Counted from the stretch's first letter, positions 1,277-31,026 are shown. The stretch: DNA of 31,026 nt from a virus (IMGVR_UViG_2667527789_000013:1-31026); one strand, 5' to 3'. Made by a program: numbers and translations. The notes: a model not told the origin generated them from the letters alone.

Positions 1277-1765
1277 CTATTTTTGCTTCTTCAATGAGTC
1301 GTATTGCTGCTCGCAGAATTCCCCTGCGATACGATACTTTTCAGCCTCAACTGCTGTTGCGTTGTAAACTCGGTTGCTTTCTTCAAGCATGTCGGCGAGC
1401 ACACTGATGACCTTGCTGGCTGACGTGCCAGAGGGGAAAGATCCGGTATAGTGTTCGGCGAGTCGCTTGGTTTTGTCAAGCTCGGCGCGCATGCTGTCAG
1501 CAACGGTATTAGCATACTCAGCATCAGCACGCGCCGCATCGATACGGGATTGTGCTTCACGTTCAATTTGTGTTTTCTCCTGCTCACGCTGTGACCTGAA
1601 CTTATCATCAGCCTGTTTCTGATCTGCCTGTGCCTTCGCATAACCAGCGTCGAACTGACGGCTGCCGTGTACATTCCAGGCAACAACTCCTGATATGACC
1701 AGAACAACAAGCACCACAATGATAATCAACTGTTTCCAGTATGCTTTTAGGAATACCCAGATCAT
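1277..1765 (-). CDS. Rz-like inner-membrane spanin (i-spanin)
   Basis: N-terminal TM helix followed by charged coiled-coil region (lambda Rz-like architecture); last gene of lysis cassette, overlaps endolysin stop by 4 nt. Confidence 0.7.
1291..1539 (-). CDS. Rz1-like outer-membrane lipoprotein spanin (o-spanin), embedded in the Rz-like gene in another frame
   Basis: Alternate-frame ORF wholly inside 1277..1765; internal ATG codons at 1539, 1524, 1515 give [17 protein letters not shown] with lipobox LTAC followed by Pro/Ser-rich mature region. No clear SD, so start choice is uncertain. Confidence 0.45.
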   Translation of the reverse strand: MRRVLMLSMLIPLLTACAPSLTKPSDSPNTIPDLSPLARQPARSSVCSPTCLKKATEFTTQQQLRLKSIVSQGNSASSNTTH

Positions 1766-2391
1766 ACCATCAGCGCCTTACTGGCAGTGATGTACCGCGC
1801 GCTCCGGTCGTCGATGCCGTTCCTGCCACCATTGATAATCAGAGTTACACGTGCTATATCGCCGGTATACTTCATGCAGCCTTTGCTGGAGAAGAACCAC
1901 GCCGCGCTACGAGCCGCATATTCATCCTGCGCCAGCAGTTCAGGCTGCTTAACTAGATCCACCTTTAATCCGTTGCCACAGTCACGATAGTTATTCAGAC
2001 CGGTAATCTGGATAAGTCCGCGCCCACGATAATTCCAGCCATCGCCGGGAGCATTGTTCCCCATGCGTTTGCTGTACACCAGATTGGCGATCGCTCTCTG
2101 CCGCTCAAGTGGCAATGGTGGTTCACCAGCACGGCGACCCAGTGCATTAGCCTGCCACTGAGTGAGACGACCAGCCCGAACAAAGTTAGCCAGTCCGGTG
2201 ACGCTGTAGTTGAAATTCTCCTGCAACCTGGTGAAGCCCCCAGACTCATGCCCGACCTGAGCAATAAACATTGCCTGATCTTCGGGTTTGCTGATTCCAA
2301 ACTCTTTCATCGCAGAAGTTATATGCGAGAACCAGCGTACGGCCAGAGCCTCGCTGATACCAGTTGCGCGCCGGAATTGTTTAATCTCCAT
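1762..2391 (-). CDS. Endolysin, glycoside hydrolase family 19 (chitinase-like) type
   Basis: 209 aa; motifs [25 protein letters not shown] characteristic of GH19 phage endolysins; no N-terminal TM/SAR segment; sits between holin-like genes and Rz. Confidence 0.75.
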
Positions 2392-2689
2392 CTTTAGACC
2401 TCGTTATTTTGAAAATCTGAACGACGTTACCGCGAGTTTTAAAAACCGCAGCAAACATGACGGCGTTGATAATGAGCTCTGATAAATCCACAACCATTGG
2501 TATGTGATACCAGATTGCATATACTGCGCGGACAGGGATGCTGGCTGACGCCACAATAAGGAAGTAGGCTAGCCACCCACCCCACCTCCGGTGTTGAGAT
2601 CCATTACGCTGGAAGGTTACGATGCGTATTGCTATTGCAGAACAGATAAGCGCATTAGCAATGAGTAAAAGCAGCTCATGAGTTGTCAT
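2381..2689 (-). CDS. Small membrane protein of lysis cassette (holin/antiholin-like)
   Basis: ATG at 2689 (MTTHELL...) preceded by GGGGAG SD; 2-3 predicted TM helices; overlaps holin stop by 14 nt and endolysin start by 11 nt. Track ORF 2381..2785 has a longer N-terminus I consider less likely. Confidence 0.45.
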
Positions 2690-3080
2690 CGTCTTTTCTC
2701 CCCGGTATAAAATCGCGTGGATTGTCTGAACGATGATAGAGCCAGATACCAATACGTACTGCGACAATTGCCGACACGAACGCACCAGCAGAGAAGACGA
2801 CCCCTTTCTCGAATGAATCCTGCGTGATAGTTGGGATCAGGCTGGCTATGCCGATAAGAATTGATGCAGTTGGTTTGTAAAAGAGAAGGCCGCAGAGGAA
2901 GCTGAGCATCGACAGCAGAACCCGTCGATGAACAGGATATTCTATGGCCGAGGTAACAAAAATTACCGCCCCAGCCAAAGCCCCCAAAGCCACCTCAGGA
3001 GGAACTCCAGCAATGACTGCTACAAGAGATCCCATACTAAGCCACTGATTTAAAGAACCACTTGTTGGATGAGTTAACAT
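2676..3080 (-). CDS. Holin-like membrane protein
   Basis: 134 aa with about three hydrophobic TM segments and a charged C-terminus ([18 protein letters not shown]); first gene of lysis cassette just downstream of tailspike; second in-frame Met at residue 16 suggests a possible dual-start motif. Confidence 0.55.
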   Translation of the reverse strand: MLTHPTSGSLNQWLSMGSLVAVIAGVPPEVALGALAGAVIFVTSAIEYPVHRRVLLSMLSFLCGLLFYKPTASILIGIASLIPTITQDSFEKGVVFSAGAFVSAIVAVRIGIWLYHRSDNPRDFIPGRKDDDNS

Positions 3081-3105: not shown

Positions 3106-3128
3106 AACTTCTATTTTCAAAAGAAGTT
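3106..3128 (-). terminator. Weak AT-rich hairpin overlapping tailspike stop (possible partial terminator)
   Basis: Inverted repeat AACTTCT / AGAAGTT with 9-nt loop; on the minus strand followed by a T-rich tract; stem is AT-rich so probably leaky. Confidence 0.25.
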
Positions 3129-5259
3129 AAGTGCGATTTACGCGAGAAATCTCATTCCAGAATCCTCCAGCGTAGATTAATTCGATAGTGTCAAAAGCAC
3201 CTAACATAAAATCACCATTGATACGCAGATTTCCTGTCTGATTCTTCAACGTTATGTTATCAGTTGATGTATTACGTATGAGAATGACCCTCATGCCTTC
3301 ATTACCACCATTGATAGTCGATAACTCCTGTGTACCACCAGATAATTTATGAAAGTTTCTGGTAACTGTAATTTCGCCACCAGATACAGTGACCACAGTA
3401 TAAGATGAGTTAGCGATAATACCTTTATCATCAACTGATAATTTAATGTCATTATCTTTCATTACATGGAAATTTCCTGTATTGTCCCGACGAAGAATAA
3501 TACCACTAGTGGTAATTTTTGGATTATCTGTTAGCTGAATATTGGTTTGATTTTTACTTCCAGTAAAGCGTCCACCAACTTTTCCTTTCCAAAACTCCAA
3601 TCCATAGCCAGCATTACTACCAGAGACAATCACGGTTGATTCTGTAGCAGTTTCCAGTAAAGCACCTGAAATACGAATCTGGTCTGAATTAAATCTGCAT
3701 CCAAAGAAACCTATATCACCTGTATTACTGGTTCCAATTTGTTTTTTAATACCCCCAGCTTGTTGGCTACCTGCTTGTGTTGCATTCTCAAACACCACAC
3801 CAAAATACTGAACGGCTCCACATCTGTCATATTTTACAGGAACATCCAGCTTAGTCGCTAACCAGGTTCCGTGAAAAGAAATACCGTTTCTGGATCCTTT
3901 TCCTGAAGCTGAAGGAATATCAATAAAAAGGGCATGCTCCCCCCATTGTTCAACACCTTTTTCGGTATTACGACTATGATGATCATTGCCAAAAATAGCG
4001 CCTCCGTGCATATTGAATGCACTGTTAGTTCCTGTTTGATCACCAATAATAGCCAGGCCAATATTACCCATTGTACGTGTATTGATAATTGTACAACCAT
4101 CGGGATCCTGCCCCATGTGTACAATTCCAGATTTTTTAAAGTAGCCACCTACAGTAACATTCACCGGCCCTGACAAATCAGTATTGTCAAGTATCAACCC
4201 AACATCATAATCAGCAGAATTATCATTATTAGGTTGAGTTATATTCCCATGTTGATCTTTAAAGTCAAAATCACAAACGACAGAAAAATCCCCACCAAAT
4301 GCAGTAAGCCCTTTATCTTTTCGACCTACATTACGGATGCAGTAACGCATCGATGAGAATTTATCGCTTCTACCTGTAGTAAATACCTTGCTACCAGTAC
4401 CTTTGAATAAAAGGCAAGTTCCAGGCAATTTGTGCTTATTTCCTGGAACCATATAAACTTTATCATCGTTTAGTGGAAATACACCTATTTTTGCCGCACC
4501 AACACCAGTCCACTCGCACGTTTTATCAATCCCATCAGTACAAACGTAAACACCTCTTGGGAAATGTAATGTGGCACCAATTGATGTGGCTGTATCATTT
4601 GCCAGCTGAATATATGGGGTATCATCACTAAAACCATCCCCCTTCGCCCCAAAATCGCGAACACTGACGGTATCCCGCATCTTATCCTGGAACGTTCGGT
4701 ATACTGCCCCAGAACCATACTGAATAAACCAGCCAAAACCACCAACAACCCCGGCGATTGCAGCATCGACATAATTACGCATTGAGCGATTATTTACAGC
4801 GTCCTGCTCAAGTGATGGCTCTGCAAGGTTAGATATTCTGTTTTGCTTTGCATCGTAATACCTGGCAAGCAACGAAGGTTTTATGAGCGCTCGCCTGAAC
4901 CATCCGATACATTGCTGAATAAGCATGGTCAGATAGTCAAGTGCATCCTCGTGGACCTCTGGAAAAAACTTCCCCTGATTACGAAGGTCTGTCTCCTGCA
5001 CTACATCAAGTACACGGTTTATAGTGATTCTCCAGCCATCAGCAAGCGGAGATGGCAGAACCACAGAACCGCCACTATAACTACCTGCACCAGTTACCGT
5101 ATAACCAGTATCCAGTACCAGAATTGTTACATTCCCGTTTATGTCCGATACCTGAACCACAAGGTCTGAATTTCTGAAAATTCGAAACCTGTACGGGAAT
5201 GATGTCGTAACCCCGTTACCAGTGTATTCATTGTGGTCAACTTCGGTTGAGACTGTCAT
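3127..5259 (-). CDS. Tailspike protein (T7-gp17-like N-terminal adaptor + beta-helix receptor-binding/depolymerase body)
   Basis: 710 aa; N-terminus NEYTGNGVTTSFPYRFRIF matches the conserved tail-fibre/tailspike N-terminal adaptor motif of T7-supergroup podoviruses; remainder is Gly/Asn/Thr-rich repeat-like with DFGAKGDG, typical of pectate-lyase-fold tailspikes; GGAG SD before ATG at 5259. Confidence 0.8.
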   Translation of the reverse strand: MTVSTEVDHNEYTGNGVTTSFPYRFRIFRNSDLVVQVSDINGNVTILVLDTGYTVTGAGSYSGGSVVLPSPLADGWRITINRVLDVVQETDLRNQGKFFPEVHEDALDYLTMLIQQCIGWFRRALIKPSLLARYYDAKQNRISNLAEPSLEQDAVNNRSMRNYVDAAIAGVVGGFGWFIQYGSGAVYRTFQDKMRDTVSVRDFGAKGDGFSDDTPYIQLANDTATSIGATLHFPRGVYVCTDGIDKTCEWTGVGAAKIGVFPLNDDKVYMVPGNKHKLPGTCLLFKGTGSKVFTTGRSDKFSSMRYCIRNVGRKDKGLTAFGGDFSVVCDFDFKDQHGNITQPNNDNSADYDVGLILDNTDLSGPVNVTVGGYFKKSGIVHMGQDPDGCTIINTRTMGNIGLAIIGDQTGTNSAFNMHGGAIFGNDHHSRNTEKGVEQWGEHALFIDIPSASGKGSRNGISFHGTWLATKLDVPVKYDRCGAVQYFGVVFENATQAGSQQAGGIKKQIGTSNTGDIGFFGCRFNSDQIRISGALLETATESTVIVSGSNAGYGLEFWKGKVGGRFTGSKNQTNIQLTDNPKITTSGIILRRDNTGNFHVMKDNDIKLSVDDKGIIANSSYTVVTVSGGEITVTRNFHKLSGGTQELSTINGGNEGMRVILIRNTSTDNITLKNQTGNLRINGDFMLGAFDTIELIYAGGFWNEISRVNRT

Positions 5260-5362
5260 GTTAAATCTCCAGATAGTCGCAGCACCTGTTGCGCCGCATA
5301 TCTGGTTATAGTATTACCATAAAAACCATATATGAATAAAAATAATATAAAAACAAAAATCT

Positions 5363-5379
5363 ATTACCTTTTGGGTAAT
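5363..5379. promoter_or_regulatory. Operator-like palindrome ATTACC-TTTTG-GGTAAT (site A)
   Basis: Perfect 6-bp inverted half-sites separated by 5 nt; one of six similar intergenic sites; in the divergent region between tailspike and the 5455 gene. Confidence 0.4.
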
Positions 5380-5415
5380 TTTAAAAACCTAGTAGATAGA
5401 AAAAACATAATTTGT

Positions 5416-5435
5416 TACTGTATAAATACACAGCT
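5416..5435 (+). promoter_or_regulatory. LexA (SOS) box candidate overlapping a -10-like element
   Basis: TACTGTATAAATACACAGCT fits CTGT-N8-ACAG (consensus TACTGTATATATATACAGTA); contains TATAAA; 20 nt upstream of ATG 5455 and its GGAGAAG SD. Confidence 0.5.
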
Positions 5436-5454
5436 ATCACATGGAGAAGATAAG

Positions 5455-5712
5455 ATGCAGCAGTATCACTATCCACTGAAAGACGGATTTACGGAAAGAA
5501 TTCATACTCCGGAAGGCGTCAGATCACTGGTGGAGGGATCGCACCTGATGGCATTACTCCGGGAGCTTGATAAAGATGGTTTTAATGTCGATGGCCCACT
5601 TGCCGAACTGACTGCACTGATTAACTACGTCACCAGCTCACAGATGTCTATGCAGGATCTGCAAACACATCTCGACTATTGTACCGAACAATTACGAAAA
5701 CAAACTACATAA
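5455..5712 (+). CDS. Small protein homologous to the C-terminal domain of the Bro-N antirepressor-like protein at 6860..7570 (putative SOS-inducible antirepressor-type factor)
   Basis: 85 aa from ATG 5455 (track ORF 5332..5712 extends upstream through the AT-rich promoter region); by-eye alignment to the last ~80 aa of 6860..7570 shares PLK, G, IH.P.GV, S.LM.LL, DG, AELT, QTH, Y (roughly one third identical). Confidence 0.55.
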   Translation: MQQYHYPLKDGFTERIHTPEGVRSLVEGSHLMALLRELDKDGFNVDGPLAELTALINYVTSSQMSMQDLQTHLDYCTEQLRKQTT

Positions 5713-5734
5713 AGAAAAGGCCGCAAGAGCGGCC
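5705..5734. terminator. Bidirectional rho-independent terminator between convergent genes
   Basis: Stem GGCCGC / GCGGCC with AAGA loop (5719-5734); T-run on the minus strand side (TTTTCTTT) and weaker T-rich tract on the plus side; overlaps stop of the minus-strand gene. Confidence 0.5.
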
Positions 5735-6462
5735 TATCGTTTCGCTTTGTGATCGTCCCAGCACGTTTTGCACCATGCCATTAAACCATCCGCATTTTGA
5801 TTATTAGGATAAAAGCTGGTTCGTTTTCTGCGGACATTACAAATTGGGCACCACTTCATATGACGTGTATTCTTTGGGCCATCAAGACACCTTGCACACC
5901 ACTTAGTCAATCCATCTGGATTTTTTGACGATTTCCGGAATTTTTCATATGGAAGGTTTATTCTGCATCGCAAACACTGCTTGCGGCCACTTGAAACTCT
6001 GTTAGCTGATTCTTCTTTTGACGGCGATACAGAAGGTATTCTTGCTGGCTCTGATACTGCCTGAGGTGCTTTTTTAGGTGACTGAGACGATATGTCATCA
6101 CCAGGAAATCTTCCATGATATGCCGGACGTGTTGACACTCCAGGTGGAAGCTCTGCTGCAAATGGCTTTGGCTGAATCAGTTGCCTCTCTTTTGCTAACT
6201 CCTGCTGTTTATAATATGTCTGGATTACCGCACTATCATAAGCAGGAGGTACGGAAATATTAGGCGCATTACCTCCCGTTTTTTGAAACTGAGTAGAGGT
6301 GTGTTCTATCACCTGTGTACGATTAATCGTTATCTCCCCATCTTCGGTCTTTATCGTTTTGTTATGATTAACGACCGTACGATCAGAGATCTTAGTCTTG
6401 TTCTGGTGAAGGACATAAATAATCACCGCAACCACACCAACAACTATCCAGAAAACTTCCAT
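5734..6462 (-). CDS. Membrane-anchored protein with tandem C-terminal zinc-ribbon-like repeats
   Basis: 242 aa; N-terminal TM helix (FWIVVGVVAVIIYVL) then KTK; long Pro/Ser/Gln-rich linker; two repeats of C-x2-C-x(20-25)-DGL-x2-WC-x2-C (CLRC...WCARC and CPIC...WCKTC); GAGGA SD upstream of ATG 6462. Confidence 0.6.
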   Translation of the reverse strand: MEVFWIVVGVVAVIIYVLHQNKTKISDRTVVNHNKTIKTEDGEITINRTQVIEHTSTQFQKTGGNAPNISVPPAYDSAVIQTYYKQQELAKERQLIQPKPFAAELPPGVSTRPAYHGRFPGDDISSQSPKKAPQAVSEPARIPSVSPSKEESANRVSSGRKQCLRCRINLPYEKFRKSSKNPDGLTKWCARCLDGPKNTRHMKWCPICNVRRKRTSFYPNNQNADGLMAWCKTCWDDHKAKR

Positions 6463-6481: not shown

Positions 6482-6498
6482 ATTACCTTAAAGGTAAT
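6482..6498. promoter_or_regulatory. Operator-like palindrome ATTACC-TTAAA-GGTAAT (site B) overlapping putative promoter of the 5734..6462 gene
   Basis: Perfect half-sites; read on the minus strand this gives TTGATC-N16/17-TACCTT, with the -10-like element inside the palindrome, about 20-36 nt upstream of the ATG at 6462. Confidence 0.4.
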
Positions 6499-6574
6499 AT
6501 CTTGCTTTCAGGTGATCAAGCGTTAAACGTAACAAACCAAATGCGGTTGATTTTGATATCTCTCCGCGTTTATC

Positions 6575-6591
6575 ATTACCTTTGCGGTAAA
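6575..6591. promoter_or_regulatory. Operator-like palindrome ATTACC-TTTGC-GGTAAA (site C)
   Basis: Same half-site motif with one mismatch in the right half; lies just upstream of the structured RNA element and about 270 nt upstream of the Bro-N gene. Confidence 0.35.
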
Positions 6592-6625
6592 TTTACATCG
6601 CACTCCTCTTGTGCCATAGTAATCG

Positions 6626-6703
6626 GGCACTGGCAAAATCCAGTGCCGGGATTGGCGTCCCGAGTTACTAAGTGGCGCATACCACGCCAGACGTGGTTTT
6701 TTT
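6626..6703 (+). ncRNA. Candidate small structured RNA or transcription attenuator ending in an intrinsic terminator
   Basis: Perfect 8-bp stem GGCACTGG / CCAGTGCC with 6-nt loop (6626-6647), then terminator stem CCACG / CGTGG followed by seven T (6682-6703); no ORF with SD in this stretch; promoter not identified. Confidence 0.3.
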
Positions 6704-6859
6704 ATGCGTTAAGCACAGCTATATCCGAATTATGGTGGGCTGGGCAGGGGTCCGAAAGGACGCCGGTACCACTTAGGCCGGTACGCCAACCTTGTCCAGT
6801 TCACCACCAGTAATTGGCGTTGCGGTGGTGATTAAAATCACTAAGTGGAGATAACCACC

Positions 6860-7570
6860 ATGGCTAATGCTCAAACTGCCATCTTCAAATTTGAATCTGT
6901 TAACCCTATCCGTTCCATCATTATCGATGGCCAACCATGGTTTGTAGCCCAAGACGTTTGTAGTGCGCTGCGTATCCAAAACGTCACCCAATCACTTGAA
7001 AAACTGGATGATGATGAAAGGTCTATGTTCAACATAGGGCATGAACATCGTGCAATTTTTGACAGCCGAGTAAAAGAGATCAACATCATCTCCGAGTCAG
7101 GCCTCTACACACTGATCCTCCGCTGCCGCGACGCAGTGACACCAGGCACTATACCCTACCGCTTTCGTAAATGGGTTACAGGTGAGGTTCTTCCTCAGAT
7201 CCGCCGCACAGGAAGTTACATTAAAAACTCGCTCCCGCAGAAAGAACGCATAAAGATGGTTGCCGACCAGGTAGCCAACGCCACGGCGTCAGCAGTAATG
7301 CAGGCGATGAAGATAGAGAACAAAACCTACAGTGCCCCACTGAAGCCCGGCTACCGCAGCCTGATTCACTCGCCGTCTGGTGTTCTCGGCCTGACGGAAA
7401 ACTCACTGCTGATGAATCTGCTTAACCAGTTGCAGGACGACGGGCACGACGTATCGGGCGCGGCGGCGGAGCTGACCACCATGTTCTGCTACATCGTCGG
7501 TGTGAGCAAGTGCCTGCGTGATATCCAGACGCACGCGGAGTACATCAACGACAAGGCAGGGTTCTTCTGA
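6860..7570 (+). CDS. Bro-N domain antirepressor-like protein (Ant/KilA-type)
   Basis: ATG 6860 with GGAG SD 9 nt upstream (track ORF starts at GTG 6845); N-terminus ...FESVNPIRSIIIDGQPWFVAQDVCSALRIQNV...LDDDE matches the Bro-N motif; C-terminal ~80 aa paralogous to the 5455..5712 product. Confidence 0.7.
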   Translation: MANAQTAIFKFESVNPIRSIIIDGQPWFVAQDVCSALRIQNVTQSLEKLDDDERSMFNIGHEHRAIFDSRVKEINIISESGLYTLILRCRDAVTPGTIPYRFRKWVTGEVLPQIRRTGSYIKNSLPQKERIKMVADQVANATASAVMQAMKIENKTYSAPLKPGYRSLIHSPSGVLGLTENSLLMNLLNQLQDDGHDVSGAAAELTTMFCYIVGVSKCLRDIQTHAEYINDKAGFF

Positions 7571-7613: not shown

Positions 7614-7642
7614 TTGCAGACTGTGGGTGAATAGCGTACTAT
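7614..7642 (+). promoter_or_regulatory. Sigma70-like promoter TTGCAG-N17-TACTAT for the two-gene cassette
   Basis: -35 TTGCAG (7614-7619), 17-nt spacer, -10 TACTAT (7637-7642); about 75 nt upstream of the small ORF SD. Confidence 0.4.
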
Positions 7643-7716: not shown

Positions 7717-7896
7717 ATGCGAAACGAAAAATTGCAGATGCGTAGAGCGCAAGCTGCCGCAAGACGTTCTTTCAATGGAAGCGTAGAGTACGTAAAAGTT
7801 ACTATGACAAAAGATCACGCAAGTCGCGTATCCCGCGCTTTCTTTGATTCTCGTAACAATAAGGAAAATTATGAGTTCGTCTGCGTCGCAGAATGA
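7717..7896 (+). CDS. Small basic ORF (59 aa), candidate antitoxin/regulator of the downstream gene
   Basis: ATG 7717 with GAGG SD 7 nt upstream; product MRNEKLQMRRAQAAARRSFNGSVEYVKVTMTKDHASRVSRAFFDSRNNKENYEFVCVAE; its 3' end overlaps the downstream ATG by 26 nt; below the size cut-off of the supplied ORF track. Confidence 0.35.
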   Translation: MRNEKLQMRRAQAAARRSFNGSVEYVKVTMTKDHASRVSRAFFDSRNNKENYEFVCVAE

Positions 7897-8416
7897 TAAA
7901 AATCAAATTATCAGATATAAGGGTCGAGTGTTGCATACGCAAAATTTCTCGGCCCTTTGTGCATCTGATCTTGAGCTGAAGAAAGTATCTGATGCCTTTG
8001 CCCAGTATTGGAAAACGGGATACCATCCATCTCTTGGTAAAGATGCTGCATTTGCTCGTCCGACAGAAATGCTTAAACTAAATGTCAGGCATACTCATGT
8101 CGATAACCAAGACTATATTCCAGAAGATAGTGATAAAAAACACACTGGTAAAAAATCATCTTGGGATGCATGGAAAAATATAGCGTCTGTACAAGTAAAA
8201 TGCATACCAACAAGTGATTGCTTTTTAGTTTATTCGGTAAATCACAATCGTGATGCGCTGGTTATGTTTTTTGTTGACGCAGATGCTCACAACATAACTG
8301 AGCAAGAAGAGTTTAAAGAGGCAGCAATCACAATCAGTTATCAATTCTTTGAGAAAACAAAAACAGAACCAATGCCTTTAGAAGAAGATCTTTTTTCTGA
8401 TAAATGGAAGGAATAG
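7871..8416 (+). CDS. Hypothetical 181-aa protein, possible YafO-like toxin
   Basis: ATG 7871 with AAGGA SD (track start 7844 is TTG); soluble; segments YWKTGYHPSLGKDAAFARP...LKLNVRHTHV and CFLVYSVNHNRDALVMFFV resemble, as I recall them, the conserved pattern of YafO-family ribosome-dependent mRNA interferases; visibly AT-rich coding sequence. Confidence 0.6.
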   Translation: MSSSASQNDKNQIIRYKGRVLHTQNFSALCASDLELKKVSDAFAQYWKTGYHPSLGKDAAFARPTEMLKLNVRHTHVDNQDYIPEDSDKKHTGKKSSWDAWKNIASVQVKCIPTSDCFLVYSVNHNRDALVMFFVDADAHNITEQEEFKEAAITISYQFFEKTKTEPMPLEEDLFSDKWKE

Positions 8417-8507: not shown

Positions 8508-9359
8508 TCACTGTGCAGTTTTCGCTGATCGATTTTCAGCTCTAAATTCAAGAACCGTTTCAATATTTCTTTCCTTCAGCATATCAATAACATTTTTATT
8601 CATTTGACTATCACTGGTTAATAACTGGTAAACGTTGCTTCTCTCTTTATCAGAGTTTTCTTTAACAGCTGCTTTGCATGCCAAATGCTTATTGAAATTT
8701 TCTACATCGCTAGTACAGGAATTTACGGCTGCTGATGAAATATCAGACGCTGAAGAAACACCATCATCCAAACGTTTTATAGCATTTTCTATACATGAGT
8801 TAAGGGAATAAACGACAACTGAGCGATACCCTTCAGACGCACACCATTCTAAATTTCTTGAAGGATCGAGTGGTTTTACTTCGCTGGATTGAATTAACTT
8901 GTCAAAAACTGACTTATATTCAATCTGTTTTTTATCTATAGCCCATACTTCAGTAGCTGATTTATAATTCCCCGTATGCCTATTAACATCAAATCCATGT
9001 TTTATAAGCAAATCTGCCCATGAAAGATTTATTGATTCATTGTTATGAGGCCATTTTCCTGTCAGAACCGCCCCCATAGACCCCATATGTCCGCCATATG
9101 ATGGTATAGCACCATGGCTCAGTAACTTCTCAGCAACCACAGGGCAATTAATTACATAAGAGGCGTAAAGCCCATTCCATAAAGCCCCTCTATAGTAATC
9201 GCCACGATTAGGTTCTTTTAAGTCGATAGCCTTTGATAATTGTTCACACGTTTTGCATGCATCAAAGTTATCCTTATTGCATTGCAATGAACTGGCAGCT
9301 GTAGGATTTACAGAGACTATTGAAAGCACTATGCCAAAAAACAAATTTATTTTTTTCAT
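8508..9359 (-). CDS. Secreted/periplasmic Cys-containing protein of unknown function (cargo; candidate lysogenic-conversion or exclusion factor)
   Basis: 283 aa; signal peptide MKKINLFFGIVLSIVSVNPTAAS; several Cys; visibly AT-rich relative to flanking structural genes; ATG 9359 lies 1 nt after the stop of the upstream ejection-protein gene. Confidence 0.6.
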   Translation of the reverse strand: MKKINLFFGIVLSIVSVNPTAASSLQCNKDNFDACKTCEQLSKAIDLKEPNRGDYYRGALWNGLYASYVINCPVVAEKLLSHGAIPSYGGHMGSMGAVLTGKWPHNNESINLSWADLLIKHGFDVNRHTGNYKSATEVWAIDKKQIEYKSVFDKLIQSSEVKPLDPSRNLEWCASEGYRSVVVYSLNSCIENAIKRLDDGVSSASDISSAAVNSCTSDVENFNKHLACKAAVKENSDKERSNVYQLLTSDSQMNKNVIDMLKERNIETVLEFRAENRSAKTAQ

Positions 9360-9360
9360 C

Positions 9361-12300
9361 CTATTTCATCTGCTCTTCAACTTTATTTAGTAATGGTGAT
9401 ATCGCCCACAGATTCTGAAAAGGTAGCATTTTACGGACAGCGTGGGTTTGCTGGCTGTCAAATTCTCCGTTAAGTACACCATTTGCAACCGTCGCGGCAT
9501 CACCGCCAAGATCAAAGGTAGGACCAAGTAAAGCACCAATAGCATTACGACTCTGAAACCTTGATACCGGAGGCGCACCAAACATCGCGCCAAGACCAAA
9601 CCTACCGCCGCTTATGTTCTCAACGGTATTCAGCGGCTCAGAGAGCCAGCCAAGCATTCCGCCCCGGTCGATCCCCTCTTTCACAAGGTTATTCCAGCTG
9701 TAATCGATATCGCGACCGCTTAACTTCTGTTTCATCATATAGACCATTGAGCCAAGCGCAATCGTGCCAAGCGCACCAAGATAGAATGCAGCATCGCCCT
9801 GCTGGATACCAGATACCAGCACCCTGTTATGCTGTGCGAAGATAAACGTTTTAAACTGCGTGATCATCTTCCAGCCTTCTTTACTAAAAAACAGCGGGGT
9901 ATCACCTACGCCAGGCGTTACAATCACTGAGTCTACATCTTTCAGCACTGCAGACTGGAAAATCTCTCTAGCGAAACGGTCATCCCACAGATGACTATGC
10001 CCGGTTAACAGCCCGTCCATATCCTCTCCGTGCTTCCCGAATTGCTCCCCGATTCGGCGCAGAACATCTTCATTGATGCCGACCTGTGCCATCTTCCGCA
10101 TTTCACTTTTGGAGAGCGTGCCACCAGCAGAAACTTGGCGAGCCGCGTCAAGTATCCTCGACTGCACTATCATCCCGGACCATGATTTAAGTGCGCTGTT
10201 CCACTGATTCATCAGCGTCCAGTTACCGAATTTCTGCGTCATCCAGTTCAGGCCTCGCTCAGCGGCGCTTCTCCGGCTATAGGGGTCAGTAAGATCCGCT
10301 ATAGCCTTTGTACGCGTAGACAGGACATAATCAAGCCCAACGGCCATTTCTCGCAAATCCCTGGTTGCAATCTTCACTGAGTACATATTTTTAAGCATGC
10401 TTACCATTGGTCCGAGAGATTTTCTCAGGCCATGCTGCATCATCGGTCGCATCAGATCAGTTGCAGCGGAGACGGTCATTCCACCAAGCAAACGGAGGAA
10501 GTTAATATTCCTAGCAACTCGCCCGGCACGAACAAAGAAACTGCGTGGATCTTGAGGTGCACCGTAAGTACCAAGCAGTCGATCACGCATAGCCGTAATA
10601 TCCCTAATATCAGCCTCCCGTTGCTTCTCAAGAACTGCACGTCGTTTAGGTGTTTTAGCCTCTTTTATTAGCCGGGTATATTCCTCACTAACCTGACGGA
10701 TTTGCTCCCCCATATCTTTACGGCCAAACTGCGCAGTCAGCTCAATTTCTGGTGCCACCTGCCGGAGATAACTTTCCATGATGTAGTTAACATCTGATTC
10801 AAGAAAATCTTCTATACGCTCATCAGGAATAAGCAGCGTTCTGCTTTTAGTGAAACCAGCCCGACCAACGAGTCTCTCTGGGATAATATCGGCTGGTACA
10901 AGCCCGGAAGGTGCGCCTATTATTTTATTCACGATCTCGTCAGCAGCGTCCTCTGCTTCCTCTCGGGATAGAGGCTCCATCTGCTTCAGTGCTCGTTCGC
11001 GGCTTGCATTCAGCCTTGTGGTTGAATTTGCCCGTTTTTGCAGTCGGCGAAGCTCAGAACGATATTTCCGTGGATTATCCAACAACTCCATATGGCGCTG
11101 ATAGACAGGAAGCTCACTCTTTGCCTGCGCTATATCATCAAGGCGTGTTTTAAGGTCAGAGCTTTCTTTCATCATTCTTGCCTGAAGTTTTTCTGATGAA
11201 GTCTCGGCCAACTCTTTTTCTATTCTTGTAAGACGCGCCTGTGTGTCAGTCTCCTGAGATATAAGCTTATTTCGTTTATCCAGTTCTTCCATGAGTAGAA
11301 TTTTTTTACCAGACCATTTCTCCGCTTCAGCGATTTCACTAGCGAGAGCATCAGCGCGCGGTGCCGATTCCTCTGCAGTTTTTAGCAATGAATTTATCCT
11401 TTCAATTCGCTGACCTGCTTTGTCAGCACCTTTGGCACTAATCCCTTGTATCCAGTTGGCAATTCGCCCTCTGAATTCAGTGCGGTCGGAAAGTATCTTA
11501 TCGAACTTATAAATGCGGGGAAGATAACTTTTCGCCGTCACGACATCGATATCCTTAGGAAGGATCCCCAGTTCCTGCATACGGGCTTTTGTGCTCTCGA
11601 AAATGGGGCGGATTCTGGCGGCTGCTTGTGAAACCTCAGGAATATCACTCTGATCACCACGGCGCATAGCCATGCCAACAGCTTCATTGAAATCAATAAA
11701 GTTCATCCTCTTCACGCCGCGGGCGCTAACAGATTTGCTGTACTGCTGGTAAGCATCACGAGTGGCTTCCATCTGCTTATAAAGCATGGCGTCGTATTGC
11801 TTAATCTTAGTCTCGACTGCCGTAAACGTAGCCAACCCCTCATCATTTTTGGCGAAGAAATAGTTATTTTCGGCAAGCTGCTGGTTAATCTGACGGGAGA
11901 CAAGAGATGGTGATTGCGCCAAGCGGCCAGCAGGAGTGACACTCAACGTTTTGTTAGCCAGTCCAAGTCCAGCGAGCTGTTCCTGATCGAGTGTGGTATT
12001 GAAAACCTGAGCTGCACCAATGCTTTGAGGAGAATCCATACCTCGCAAATGATTACCTACTGAGTTAACCACTGCCTCGCGCGCGCCAGGTCCAGCAAGT
12101 AGCTGTGCACCAGCACCAAGGATCCCACCAACGAGAGCATCAACAACAACATTCGATACGCTCTCCATCGGTGAGCGAGCTTCCTGAGTGGCCTGTAATG
12201 CGGCCTCTGAAGCAACACTGCCAGCAGCATTCGCCAGGGCAAAACGCCCGGCTGTTTCTGCAATACGACCGCCACGAACGACAGCGCCGAACGGAATAAA

Positions 12301-25426: not shown

Positions 25427-25503
25427 GTGGCATTAGCTCAGCTGGACAGAGCAACCGCCTTCTAAGCGGTTGGTCGCAGGTTCGAATCCTGCATGCCACG
25501 CCA
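25427..25503 (+). tRNA. tRNA-Arg (anticodon TCT; reads AGA)
   Basis: 77 nt cloverleaf by hand: acceptor GTGGCAT/ATGCCAC, D-arm GCTC-AGCTGGACA-GAGC, anticodon stem ACCGC/GCGGT with loop CTTCTAA, variable TGGTC, T-arm GCAGG-TTCGAAT-CCTGC, discriminator G, encoded CCA. Differs from E. coli argU as I recall it in the acceptor and anticodon stems. Confidence 0.85.
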
Positions 25504-25589: not shown

Positions 25590-25666
25590 CAGCAGGACGC
25601 CATTGCGATGACTTCATGCTGTAAACCCGTACAGCCACGGAAGGCATAACTCATTGCTTCCAGTTC

Positions 25667-25701: not shown

Positions 25702-26073
25702 ATGAACGACCAGCAAATCGAAAAAGAAATCGTTGAGAAAGGCAAAACGGCACCGCGCGTTACGCCAGACCATATCGAAGGCATTATTGCTCAGGAGGCA
25801 TATTTCACAGCAGAAGATGGTGCCTTTGGCAAAGCCATAAAAGCGAAACATACTGGCGGAGAGGTAAACTACCAGCCGCACGAATCACTTTCTCTGCTGA
25901 CGTTCTGCGTCCTGGTGCTGCGCAACGGCTTCACCGTCACCGGAGAGAGCGCCTGTGCAAGCCCGGAAAACTTTGATGCAGAAATTGGTCGGAAGATTGC
26001 CCGGCAGAATGCTGTAAACAAAATCTGGATGCTCGAAGGTTACTTGCTGAAGCAGAAGCTAAGCGAGCAATAA
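25702..26073 (+). CDS. Gp49-like phage protein (N4 gp49 / Sf6 gp66 family), cargo gene
   Basis: 123 aa; motifs TAPRVT, NGFTVTGESACASPENFDAEIGRKIARQNAVNKIWMLEGYLL match my recollection of this widespread prophage family; plus strand, opposite to the structural operon. Confidence 0.55.
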   Translation: MNDQQIEKEIVEKGKTAPRVTPDHIEGIIAQEAYFTAEDGAFGKAIKAKHTGGEVNYQPHESLSLLTFCVLVLRNGFTVTGESACASPENFDAEIGRKIARQNAVNKIWMLEGYLLKQKLSEQ

Positions 26074-30895: not shown

Positions 30896-31026
30896 TACTC
30901 ACCTCCTTTGATGCGAATGCCAGCAACACGTAGTGCATGTTCTAAGTCAGCCAGATAAAGCCAGCAGCCATTTTCTTTAGGTATCATGACGTGGCGCTCA
31001 TCATCATTTATCGGATGTCCATATCG
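30895..31026 (-). CDS. 3' end of a gene continuing beyond the window (partial, 43 codons visible)
   Basis: Open frame from the window edge ending at TAA 30895-30897 (...HALRVAGIRIKGGE), translationally coupled to the next ORF. Confidence 0.3.
   Translation of the reverse strand, partial: RYGHPINDDERHVMIPKENGCWLYLADLEHALRVAGIRIKGGE

Follow-up and report, generated by a model that had tools for sequence, protein, structure and literature searches.

The closest described counterpart of the locus reported here is the Ant–Rep–LexA switch of the Salmonella phage SPC32H, which was reportedly worked out by Kim & Ryu (2013, J Virol 87:11775) and Kim et al. (2016, PNAS 113:E2480) and is represented by the structures PDB 5D50 and 5D4Z. 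A second precedent is found in coliphage 186, where a LexA box lies over the promoter (p95) of Tum, a small antirepressor of a non-cleavable repressor. For SPC32H, one account has the antirepressor made after LexA self-cleavage and inhibiting the lysogenic repressor by protein–protein contact (Kim & Ryu 2013, cited in PMC7380047), and another describes an Ant tetramer that contacts two Rep dimers at their C-terminal domains and disassembles the DNA-binding Rep tetramer (work of 2016, cited in PMC9638917). Small LexA-repressed antirepressors directed against non-cleavable prophage repressors are likewise described for Gifsy-1 and Gifsy-3 (GfoA and GfhA; Lemire et al. 2011, PMC3121763).

Antirepressor genes of another kind, in P1/P7 immI (c4-icd-ant), N15 (antA/antB with CA RNA) and Gifsy-1 (isrK-orf45-anrP; PMC4825925), resemble the second antirepressor gene of our locus. 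The features of this immI type are an a1/b1 leader, a C4 antisense RNA, and a2/b2 sequences at the antirepressor ribosome-binding site. N15 combines such a C4-type module with a separate LexA-controlled antirepressor (AntC). Finally, the E. coli Uetakevirus ZX5, which is integrated at guaA, encodes an ‘anti-repressor’ (ORF4) whose overexpression lowers the lysogen count ∼1000-fold; the paper on ZX5 makes no mention of the small Ant protein (‘hypothetical’ in ZX5), of SPC32H, of a LexA box or of a C4/isrK leader (PMC9782041).

Here we describe a stretch of viral DNA of 31,026 nt, referred to in full as the window, which carries both kinds of antirepressor gene. The gene at 5455–5712 (plus strand) is best read as ant of an epsilon15/phiV10-like (Uetakevirus) prophage, an ortholog of SPC32H Ant that would be silenced by LexA and act on the repressor Rep, with a Bro-N protein encoded downstream as a second antirepressor. 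We assign this reading a probability of about 0.9.

Prophage setting and the small antirepressor gene

Bases 1–1071 of the window encode the host genes yfgH and yfgI, going by how E. coli 2013C-3033, the nearest complete genome, is annotated. They are followed at 1164–1180 by the att core ATTGAGTGGGAATGATT, a 17-bp sequence known from phiV10, epsilon15 and ZX5 (PMC9782041), and the yfgI–guaA site is where the prophage of the close relative is located. Over most of its length, the window shows 96% identity to Escherichia phages EC.W1-9 and TL-2011b, and the best relative among complete E. coli genomes is 98% identical across the ant locus. Judged by its sequence, the window from the att core to its end is an epsilon15/phiV10-like (Uetakevirus) prophage of E. 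coli. A search of complete E. coli genomes with the 2.6-kb ant/Bro-N region gave a match in 535 of 5426, spanning most of the region in 105.

The gene order begins with the lysis cassette (1277–3080, minus strand) and the tailspike gene (3127–5259, minus strand), which is divergent from ant with the same synteny as in SPC32H and epsilon15. After the tailspike gene come ant on the plus strand, a set of cargo genes, the virion, portal and terminase genes on the minus strand, and the first early genes. In SPC32H and epsilon15, the ant ortholog also stands between the tailspike and gp17/gp18-like virion genes, on the opposite strand and with a hairpin terminator after it. Relative to SPC32H, whose host is Salmonella rather than E. 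coli, the window has additional genes, occupying ∼3.6 kb, that separate ant from the virion genes; one of them encodes the Bro-N-fused Ant-domain protein, which SPC32H lacks.

Several other genes of this region may be noted in passing. The cargo genes at 5734–6462 (minus), 7844–8416 (plus) and 8508–9359 (minus) are absent in SPC32H and epsilon15, and include a membrane-anchored protein in which CxxC zinc-ribbon motifs are repeated (phrog_6762), a YafO-toxin-like protein (Pfam 25.7 bits, barely over the cutoff) whose gene is preceded by an operator-like palindrome at 7641, and a 283-aa protein of phrog_6118, a family that assigns no function. A tRNA-Arg (TCT) gene at 25427–25503 lies between the terminase and head genes, likewise in SPC32H. 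Close to it, at 25617–25636, a weak CTGT-N8-ACAG match (10 bits) precedes a gene of the Phage_gp49_66 family (25702–26073).

The ant gene encodes 85 aa and is preceded by a Shine-Dalgarno sequence, GGAG (5443–5446), 8 nt before the ATG, which is retained in every aligned related locus. It is followed at 5718–5735 by a GC-rich hairpin (reported on the minus strand) common to ant and the convergent gene at 5734–6462; this hairpin is probably a bidirectional terminator, and its equivalent is annotated as a rho-independent terminator in the epsilon15 record. The only solved structure matched by the small protein is PDB 5D50 chain E (‘Anti-repressor protein’; E=3.7e-46, residues 2–85 against 3–86), which is the Ant of SPC32H. 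In a tblastn search, the SPC32H ant product matched positions 5458–5709 with 85.7% identity and gave a second, weaker match at 7322–7555, inside the Bro-N gene. The protein also falls into PHROG 450 (phrog_450, ‘unknown function’; E=6.5e-47). A Pfam search assigned it to no family, and a sub-threshold match to DUF724 was treated as noise. At the level of selection, dN/dS of ant is 0.05–0.06 against the Salmonella and Enterobacter orthologs, with synonymous sites saturated, and the gene is under strong purifying selection. An in-frame ATG upstream, at 5332, opens a 126-aa ORF (5332–5712) that is given by several gene callers; this longer form crosses the operator and the LexA box, is not the form found in the crystal structure, and is probably an annotation artefact.

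A word-indexed search returned 134 close relatives of the small protein, nearly all of 85–86 aa and mostly unnamed, from E. coli, Salmonella, Citrobacter, Klebsiella and other enterobacteria. The Ant domain was found in only 62 clusters by an exhaustive profile search of 1.84 billion representatives, either free-standing (∼80–130 aa) or at the extreme C-terminus of proteins of 150–319 aa, with Bro-N (this window) and P22_AR_N (TL-2011b) as N-terminal partners. Among 50,697 phage records searched by tblastn, 35 contain the domain, all of them phages of E. coli, Salmonella, Enterobacter or Klebsiella, and those examined are epsilon15-like. The small gene itself is named ‘hypothetical protein’ by RefSeq in the genomes listed, and by most phage records.

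LexA box and the divergent ant–tailspike spacer

The sequence-only reading had placed a near-consensus LexA box, overlapping a –10-like element, in front of the 85-aa gene, and both features are borne out. The putative LexA (SOS) box TACTGTATAAATACACAGCT occupies 5416–5435, with the core CTGT-N8-ACAG at 5418–5433, and ends 19 nt upstream of the ant ATG. A weight matrix was compiled from 20 E. coli SOS boxes described in the literature rather than taken from a curated file; by this matrix the box scores 23.7–24 bits, which ranks it within the top quarter of the boxes used for training. The second-best 20-mer across the 31-kb window reaches 10.2 bits, leaving TACTGTATAAATACACAGCT as the sole strong site. 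Further CTGT-N8-ACAG matches at 3824, 20794 and 25619 were rejected as SOS boxes, as they score at most 10 bits or fall outside the ten best matrix sites.

The 200-nt segments that precede ant align well across eleven loci in phages and prophages of E. coli, Salmonella, Enterobacter and Klebsiella. Ten of the eleven (E. coli, Salmonella and Enterobacter) share an unvarying CTGT and ACAG at a constant distance from the ATG, with differing N8 spacers in between (ATAAATAC, ATATTTAT, ATAAACAT, GTATTTAT, ATGTTTAT, ATAAGCAT and ACATATAT). The box of the window is in the same register as those of SPC32H and epsilon15. A comparison of the deposited genomes of SPC32H and SPC32N showed two differences in the 600 bp compared, one of which changes ACAG to AAAG in the right half-site of the box; the matrix gives 25.5 bits for the SPC32H box, 19.2 for the SPC32N mutant box and 24.0 for TACTGTATAAATACACAGCT. 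Kim & Ryu reportedly found in 2013 that a single change in the LexA site led to constitutive Ant and a lytic phenotype, a result with which the SPC32N difference agrees.

A distant Ant lineage, found in Klebsiella-type phages and metagenomic contigs with homologs of 63–70% identity, has ATGT-N8-ACAG at this place, for example ATATGTATATATATACAGTA. These boxes score 13–19 bits, not above the derepressed SPC32N box, and the variant could reflect weaker LexA control or another regulator.

The conservation of box and gene bears on a rival account, in which the small ORF would be a decaying, functionless copy of the C-terminal part of the Bro-N gene, and the LexA-like palindrome in front of it a coincidental match in AT-rich DNA. 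Such an origin would account for one domain being common to two proteins on one element, and for the name ‘hypothetical protein’ that the small gene bears in RefSeq and most phage records. It is at odds with the low dN/dS of 0.05–0.06 and with phages that lack the Bro-N gene (SPC32H, epsilon15, BUCT554 and PAT1), in which an ORF of 85–86 aa is nonetheless kept together with its own Shine-Dalgarno sequence. The box, moreover, is conserved though its spacer varies, and a crystal structure and functional work exist for the ortholog. On the conservation data we consider the decaying-fragment account effectively refuted.

Which promoter the box would cover was approached by consensus scans. A strict scan reported no promoter at ant, and a looser one gave several candidates with 8–9 of 12 matches. 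Two of these are TAGAAA (5397–5402)-18-TATAAA (5421–5426), which has 9/12 matches and is the best pairing that uses the TATAAA within the box, and TTGTTA-17-TATCAC (5412–5440). In the coliphage 186 record, the –10 element of the SOS promoter p95 is given as TACTGT, which forms the left half of the LexA box there; by analogy, TAGATA (5393–5398)-17-TACTGT (5416–5421) is a third candidate. A –35 block, CTGGATAG in relatives, lies 17 nt upstream of the box and is the most conserved stretch upstream of it. Based on the scan, the conservation and the 186 analogy, we place the candidate promoter elements of ant at 5393–5426 on the plus strand, under the box. The exact hexamers are putative, and under every candidate the LexA box would overlap the ant core promoter.

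The spacer between ant and the tailspike gene is 195 bp long and also contains an operator-like palindrome, ATTACCTTTTGGGTAAT (5363–5379), which is conserved in the alignment and is a putative Rep operator. On the minus strand, a promoter-like element, TTCATA-17-TACTAT (5308–5336; 8/12 matches, in a block conserved in relatives), is directed toward the tailspike and lysis genes. That the divergent region would be shared with a tailspike/lysis promoter, as had been suggested, is plausible in view of these two elements, since the palindrome adjoins the conserved minus-strand element and so supports a shared divergent control region. The same arrangement, with the box inside a divergent spacer that also has a promoter-like element toward the tailspike gene, would fit a model in which the box chiefly controls the tailspike/lysis unit, or both units, rather than ant alone, such that SOS acts directly on late genes. 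We regard this as very unlikely. The distance from the box is 19 nt to the ant ATG and ∼157 nt to the tailspike ATG, the box lies ∼80 nt upstream of the candidate minus-strand –35 element, and what adjoins the minus-strand promoter is the operator-like palindrome, not the box. Furthermore, the SPC32N box mutation, the sequence difference of which we confirmed, is reported by Kim & Ryu in 2013 to give constitutive Ant synthesis.

Coliphage 186 Tum and the Gifsy antirepressors had been named as precedents for a LexA-controlled module of this kind. The functional logic of that comparison stands; the correct reference is the Ant/Rep pair of SPC32H and other epsilon15-like phages, and there is no homology to Tum. 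The 186 p95 box TACTGTATGTTTATACAGTA (9045–9064) matches the epsilon15 ant box (∼6105–6124) at each of its 20 bases. In a BLASTP comparison of Ant with 186 Tum, however, no homology was detected (best 17.3 bits, E=0.038 for the single pair), so that membership in the Tum family is rejected and the resemblance is functional only. Tum further differs in that the 186 record gives its C-terminal part the label DinI (RecA filament binding protein), and 186 is a P2-like myovirus with the gene in another genomic location. The Gifsy prophages are lambdoid siphoviruses, and no relation of their antirepressors to Ant was detected in the profile search, which gave only 62 clusters, or in the tblastn search of phage records, where the matches examined are epsilon15-like.

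Rep, its putative operators and the proposed induction route

A tblastn search found no Rep homolog in the 31,026-nt window, which stops short of the expected rep position; by synteny with SPC32H, EC.W1-9 and E. coli 2013C-3033, rep is expected a few kb past base 31026. In E. coli 2013C-3033, where Ant is 98.8% identical, a Rep homolog of 194 aa matches 5D50 chain A (‘Repressor’; E=4e-42). Its Pfam matches above cutoff are to a helix-turn-helix only (HTH_3), without an S24 peptidase domain. EC.W1-9 likewise encodes a Rep homolog. Between the Rep of the E. coli lineage and that of SPC32H, identity is only 42%, and Ant–Rep binding in this lineage is for that reason an extrapolation.

The likeness to SPC32H extends to the putative operators. 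Allowing one mismatch, the window has seven copies of the 17-bp palindrome ATTACC-N5-GGTAAT where 0.06 would be expected, at 5363, 6482, 6575, 7641, 25089, 28231 and 28249, mostly in intergenic or promoter regions. The same palindrome is present at 12 sites in SPC32H, among them two adjacent ones in the rep–cro spacer and some before terminase, head, tailspike and lysis genes, and the copy adjoining ant is labelled ‘repressor; lysogeny’ in the epsilon15 record. These palindromes are probably a Rep operator set controlling many transcription units. As a side observation, comparison of the E. coli and Salmonella phages gives 86% identity for Ant and only 42% for Rep, with the operator consensus unchanged; cross-induction among phages of the group could be possible with an Ant so much better conserved than Rep.

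The same disparity between Ant (86%) and Rep (42%) could be taken to mean that the small Ant of the E. coli lineage does not act on Rep at all, and instead modulates the Bro-N antirepressor, for instance in mixed oligomers, or targets the repressor of a co-resident prophage. SPC32H Ant is described as a tetramer (PMC9638917), the C-terminal domain of the Bro-N protein is homologous to it, and antirepressors acting in trans are known in Salmonella (PMC3121763). We nevertheless think such a target improbable to a high degree. Phages with Ant but without the Bro-N protein exist, so that Ant must have its own function, and Rep homologs accompany Ant in the complete relatives examined.

With Rep as the preferred target, induction of this prophage would follow the SPC32H route. 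In the lysogen, host LexA would sit on the box at 5416–5435, overlapping the ant core promoter, and keep ant silent. Upon DNA damage, activated RecA would promote LexA self-cleavage and Ant would be made. Ant would then bind the prophage repressor Rep, a helix-turn-helix protein without an autocleavage domain, and take it off its operators, and the lytic genes would be derepressed once Rep is removed. The support gathered here consists of homology, synteny, box strength, box conservation and purifying selection, while LexA binding, SOS inducibility and Rep binding in this prophage are predicted by orthology. The proposal that a small LexA-controlled antirepressor couples induction to DNA damage is supported by an Ant ortholog of 86% identity, a box position conserved across the genus and a statistically firm match between the two Ant domains. 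The 86% identity to SPC32H Ant over the full length is accompanied by the same gene position, orientation and box–ATG distance, the same family of operator-like palindromes, and a Rep homolog in close relatives of the window. Since the small protein is an ortholog of the already characterised SPC32H Ant, an SOS-controlled antirepressor is not in itself new, and ant with its LexA box appears as an instance of the known SPC32H-type system in an E. coli relative.

The Bro-N paralog and its isrK/C4 leader

The second gene, at 6860–7570 (plus strand), encodes a protein of 236 aa with a Bro-N domain at about residues 17–112 (PF02498, 69.7 bits, E=3.5e-19, above the gathering score of 25.6) and an Ant-like C-terminal domain at residues 155–232 (DNA 7322–7555). 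It matches both phrog_130 and phrog_450. Its likely start is the ATG at 6860, with GGAG at 6847–6850 ahead of it, in agreement with the RefSeq call in the closest relative. The sequence-only reading held that the small protein aligns with the last ∼80 residues of this protein and that its domain recurs in a two-domain Ant-like protein on the same element. Pairwise BLASTP bears out the alignment, with 32 identities in 78 ungapped positions (41%, E=2e-16) between residues 2–79 of the small protein and 155–232 of the Bro-N protein. The Bro-N protein alone also matches 5D50 chain E, through residues 155–231 (E=2.2e-13). Its counterpart in ZX5, the ‘anti-repressor’ ORF4, is 80% identical overall and nearly identical in the C-terminal 150 residues.

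The Bro-N gene is preceded by two structured RNAs on the plus strand, both scoring above the Rfam gathering thresholds. An isrK-like leader (6627–6703; RF01394, 67.2 bits) ends in a terminator (6681–6697 and a U run) and contains a1 at 6668–6675 and b1 at 6652–6658; the corresponding a1/b1 target family, RF03163, scores 44.3 bits, just below its gathering score of 46.7. A C4-type antisense RNA (6728–6811; RF01695, 66 bits) follows. Its loop CCACUUAG (6769–6776) is exactly complementary to a1 and to a2 (6841–6848), which overlaps the Shine-Dalgarno sequence of the Bro-N gene, and its ACGCCAA (6783–6789) is exactly complementary to b1 and to b2 (6814–6820). Upstream of the whole unit, at 6482–6591, are two of the operator-like palindromes, one perfect (6482–6498) and one with a single mismatch (6575–6591), which flank or overlap promoter-like sites at 6547–6620. 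The isrK and C4 pair is likewise present ahead of the Bro-N gene at four other loci, those of ZX5, Tyrion, a Klebsiella phage and a metagenomic contig.

The Bro-N paralog is thus predicted to be a second, separately regulated antirepressor, controlled by operator-like palindromes and by an isrK/C4 antisense RNA that would mask its ribosome-binding site. Unlike the immI-type units, it has no icd/orf45-type ORF between the C4 RNA and the antirepressor gene, a2 lying directly on the Bro-N Shine-Dalgarno sequence, and it has the SPC32H-Ant domain as its effector. It therefore seems that copies of one C-terminal domain are connected to two distinct inputs on the same element.

Two observations on relatives may be added. 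TL-2011b has a third Ant-domain protein, fused to P22_AR_N (9471–10415, minus strand), and a frameshift within the Ant-like domain splits the Bro-N copy of phiV10 (7212–7429).

A broader reading, which we offer tentatively and hold to be somewhat short of probable, is that the Ant domain is a portable Rep-binding effector wired to several independent inputs on one genome. The free-standing copy behind the LexA box may serve as the DNA-damage input, the Bro-N fusion behind palindromes and isrK/C4 may serve as an immI-like anti-immunity input or a positive-feedback latch, and the P22_AR_N fusion of TL-2011b may be a third wiring. If all copies target one Rep, or co-assemble through the shared oligomerising domain, the outcome would be an induction circuit of ‘one effector domain, several sensors’, for which we found no description in the searchable literature. 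The sharing of the domain and the C4/isrK control of the fused copy may be the only part that goes beyond that literature.

The value of these findings lies mainly in annotation, as the locus gives a function to a gene still called ‘hypothetical protein’. For the common guaA-integrated prophages, induction is predicted to proceed through LexA cleavage and an antirepressor rather than through repressor autocleavage. What is modestly fresh is that the Bro-N ‘anti-repressor’ of E. coli Uetakeviruses, for which experimental tests exist, contains the Ant domain defined by the SPC32H crystal structure, and that it lies behind a C4/isrK riboregulator. This link between Bro-N and the Ant domain provides a concrete hypothesis for how the Bro-N protein may act and for how two induction inputs may converge.
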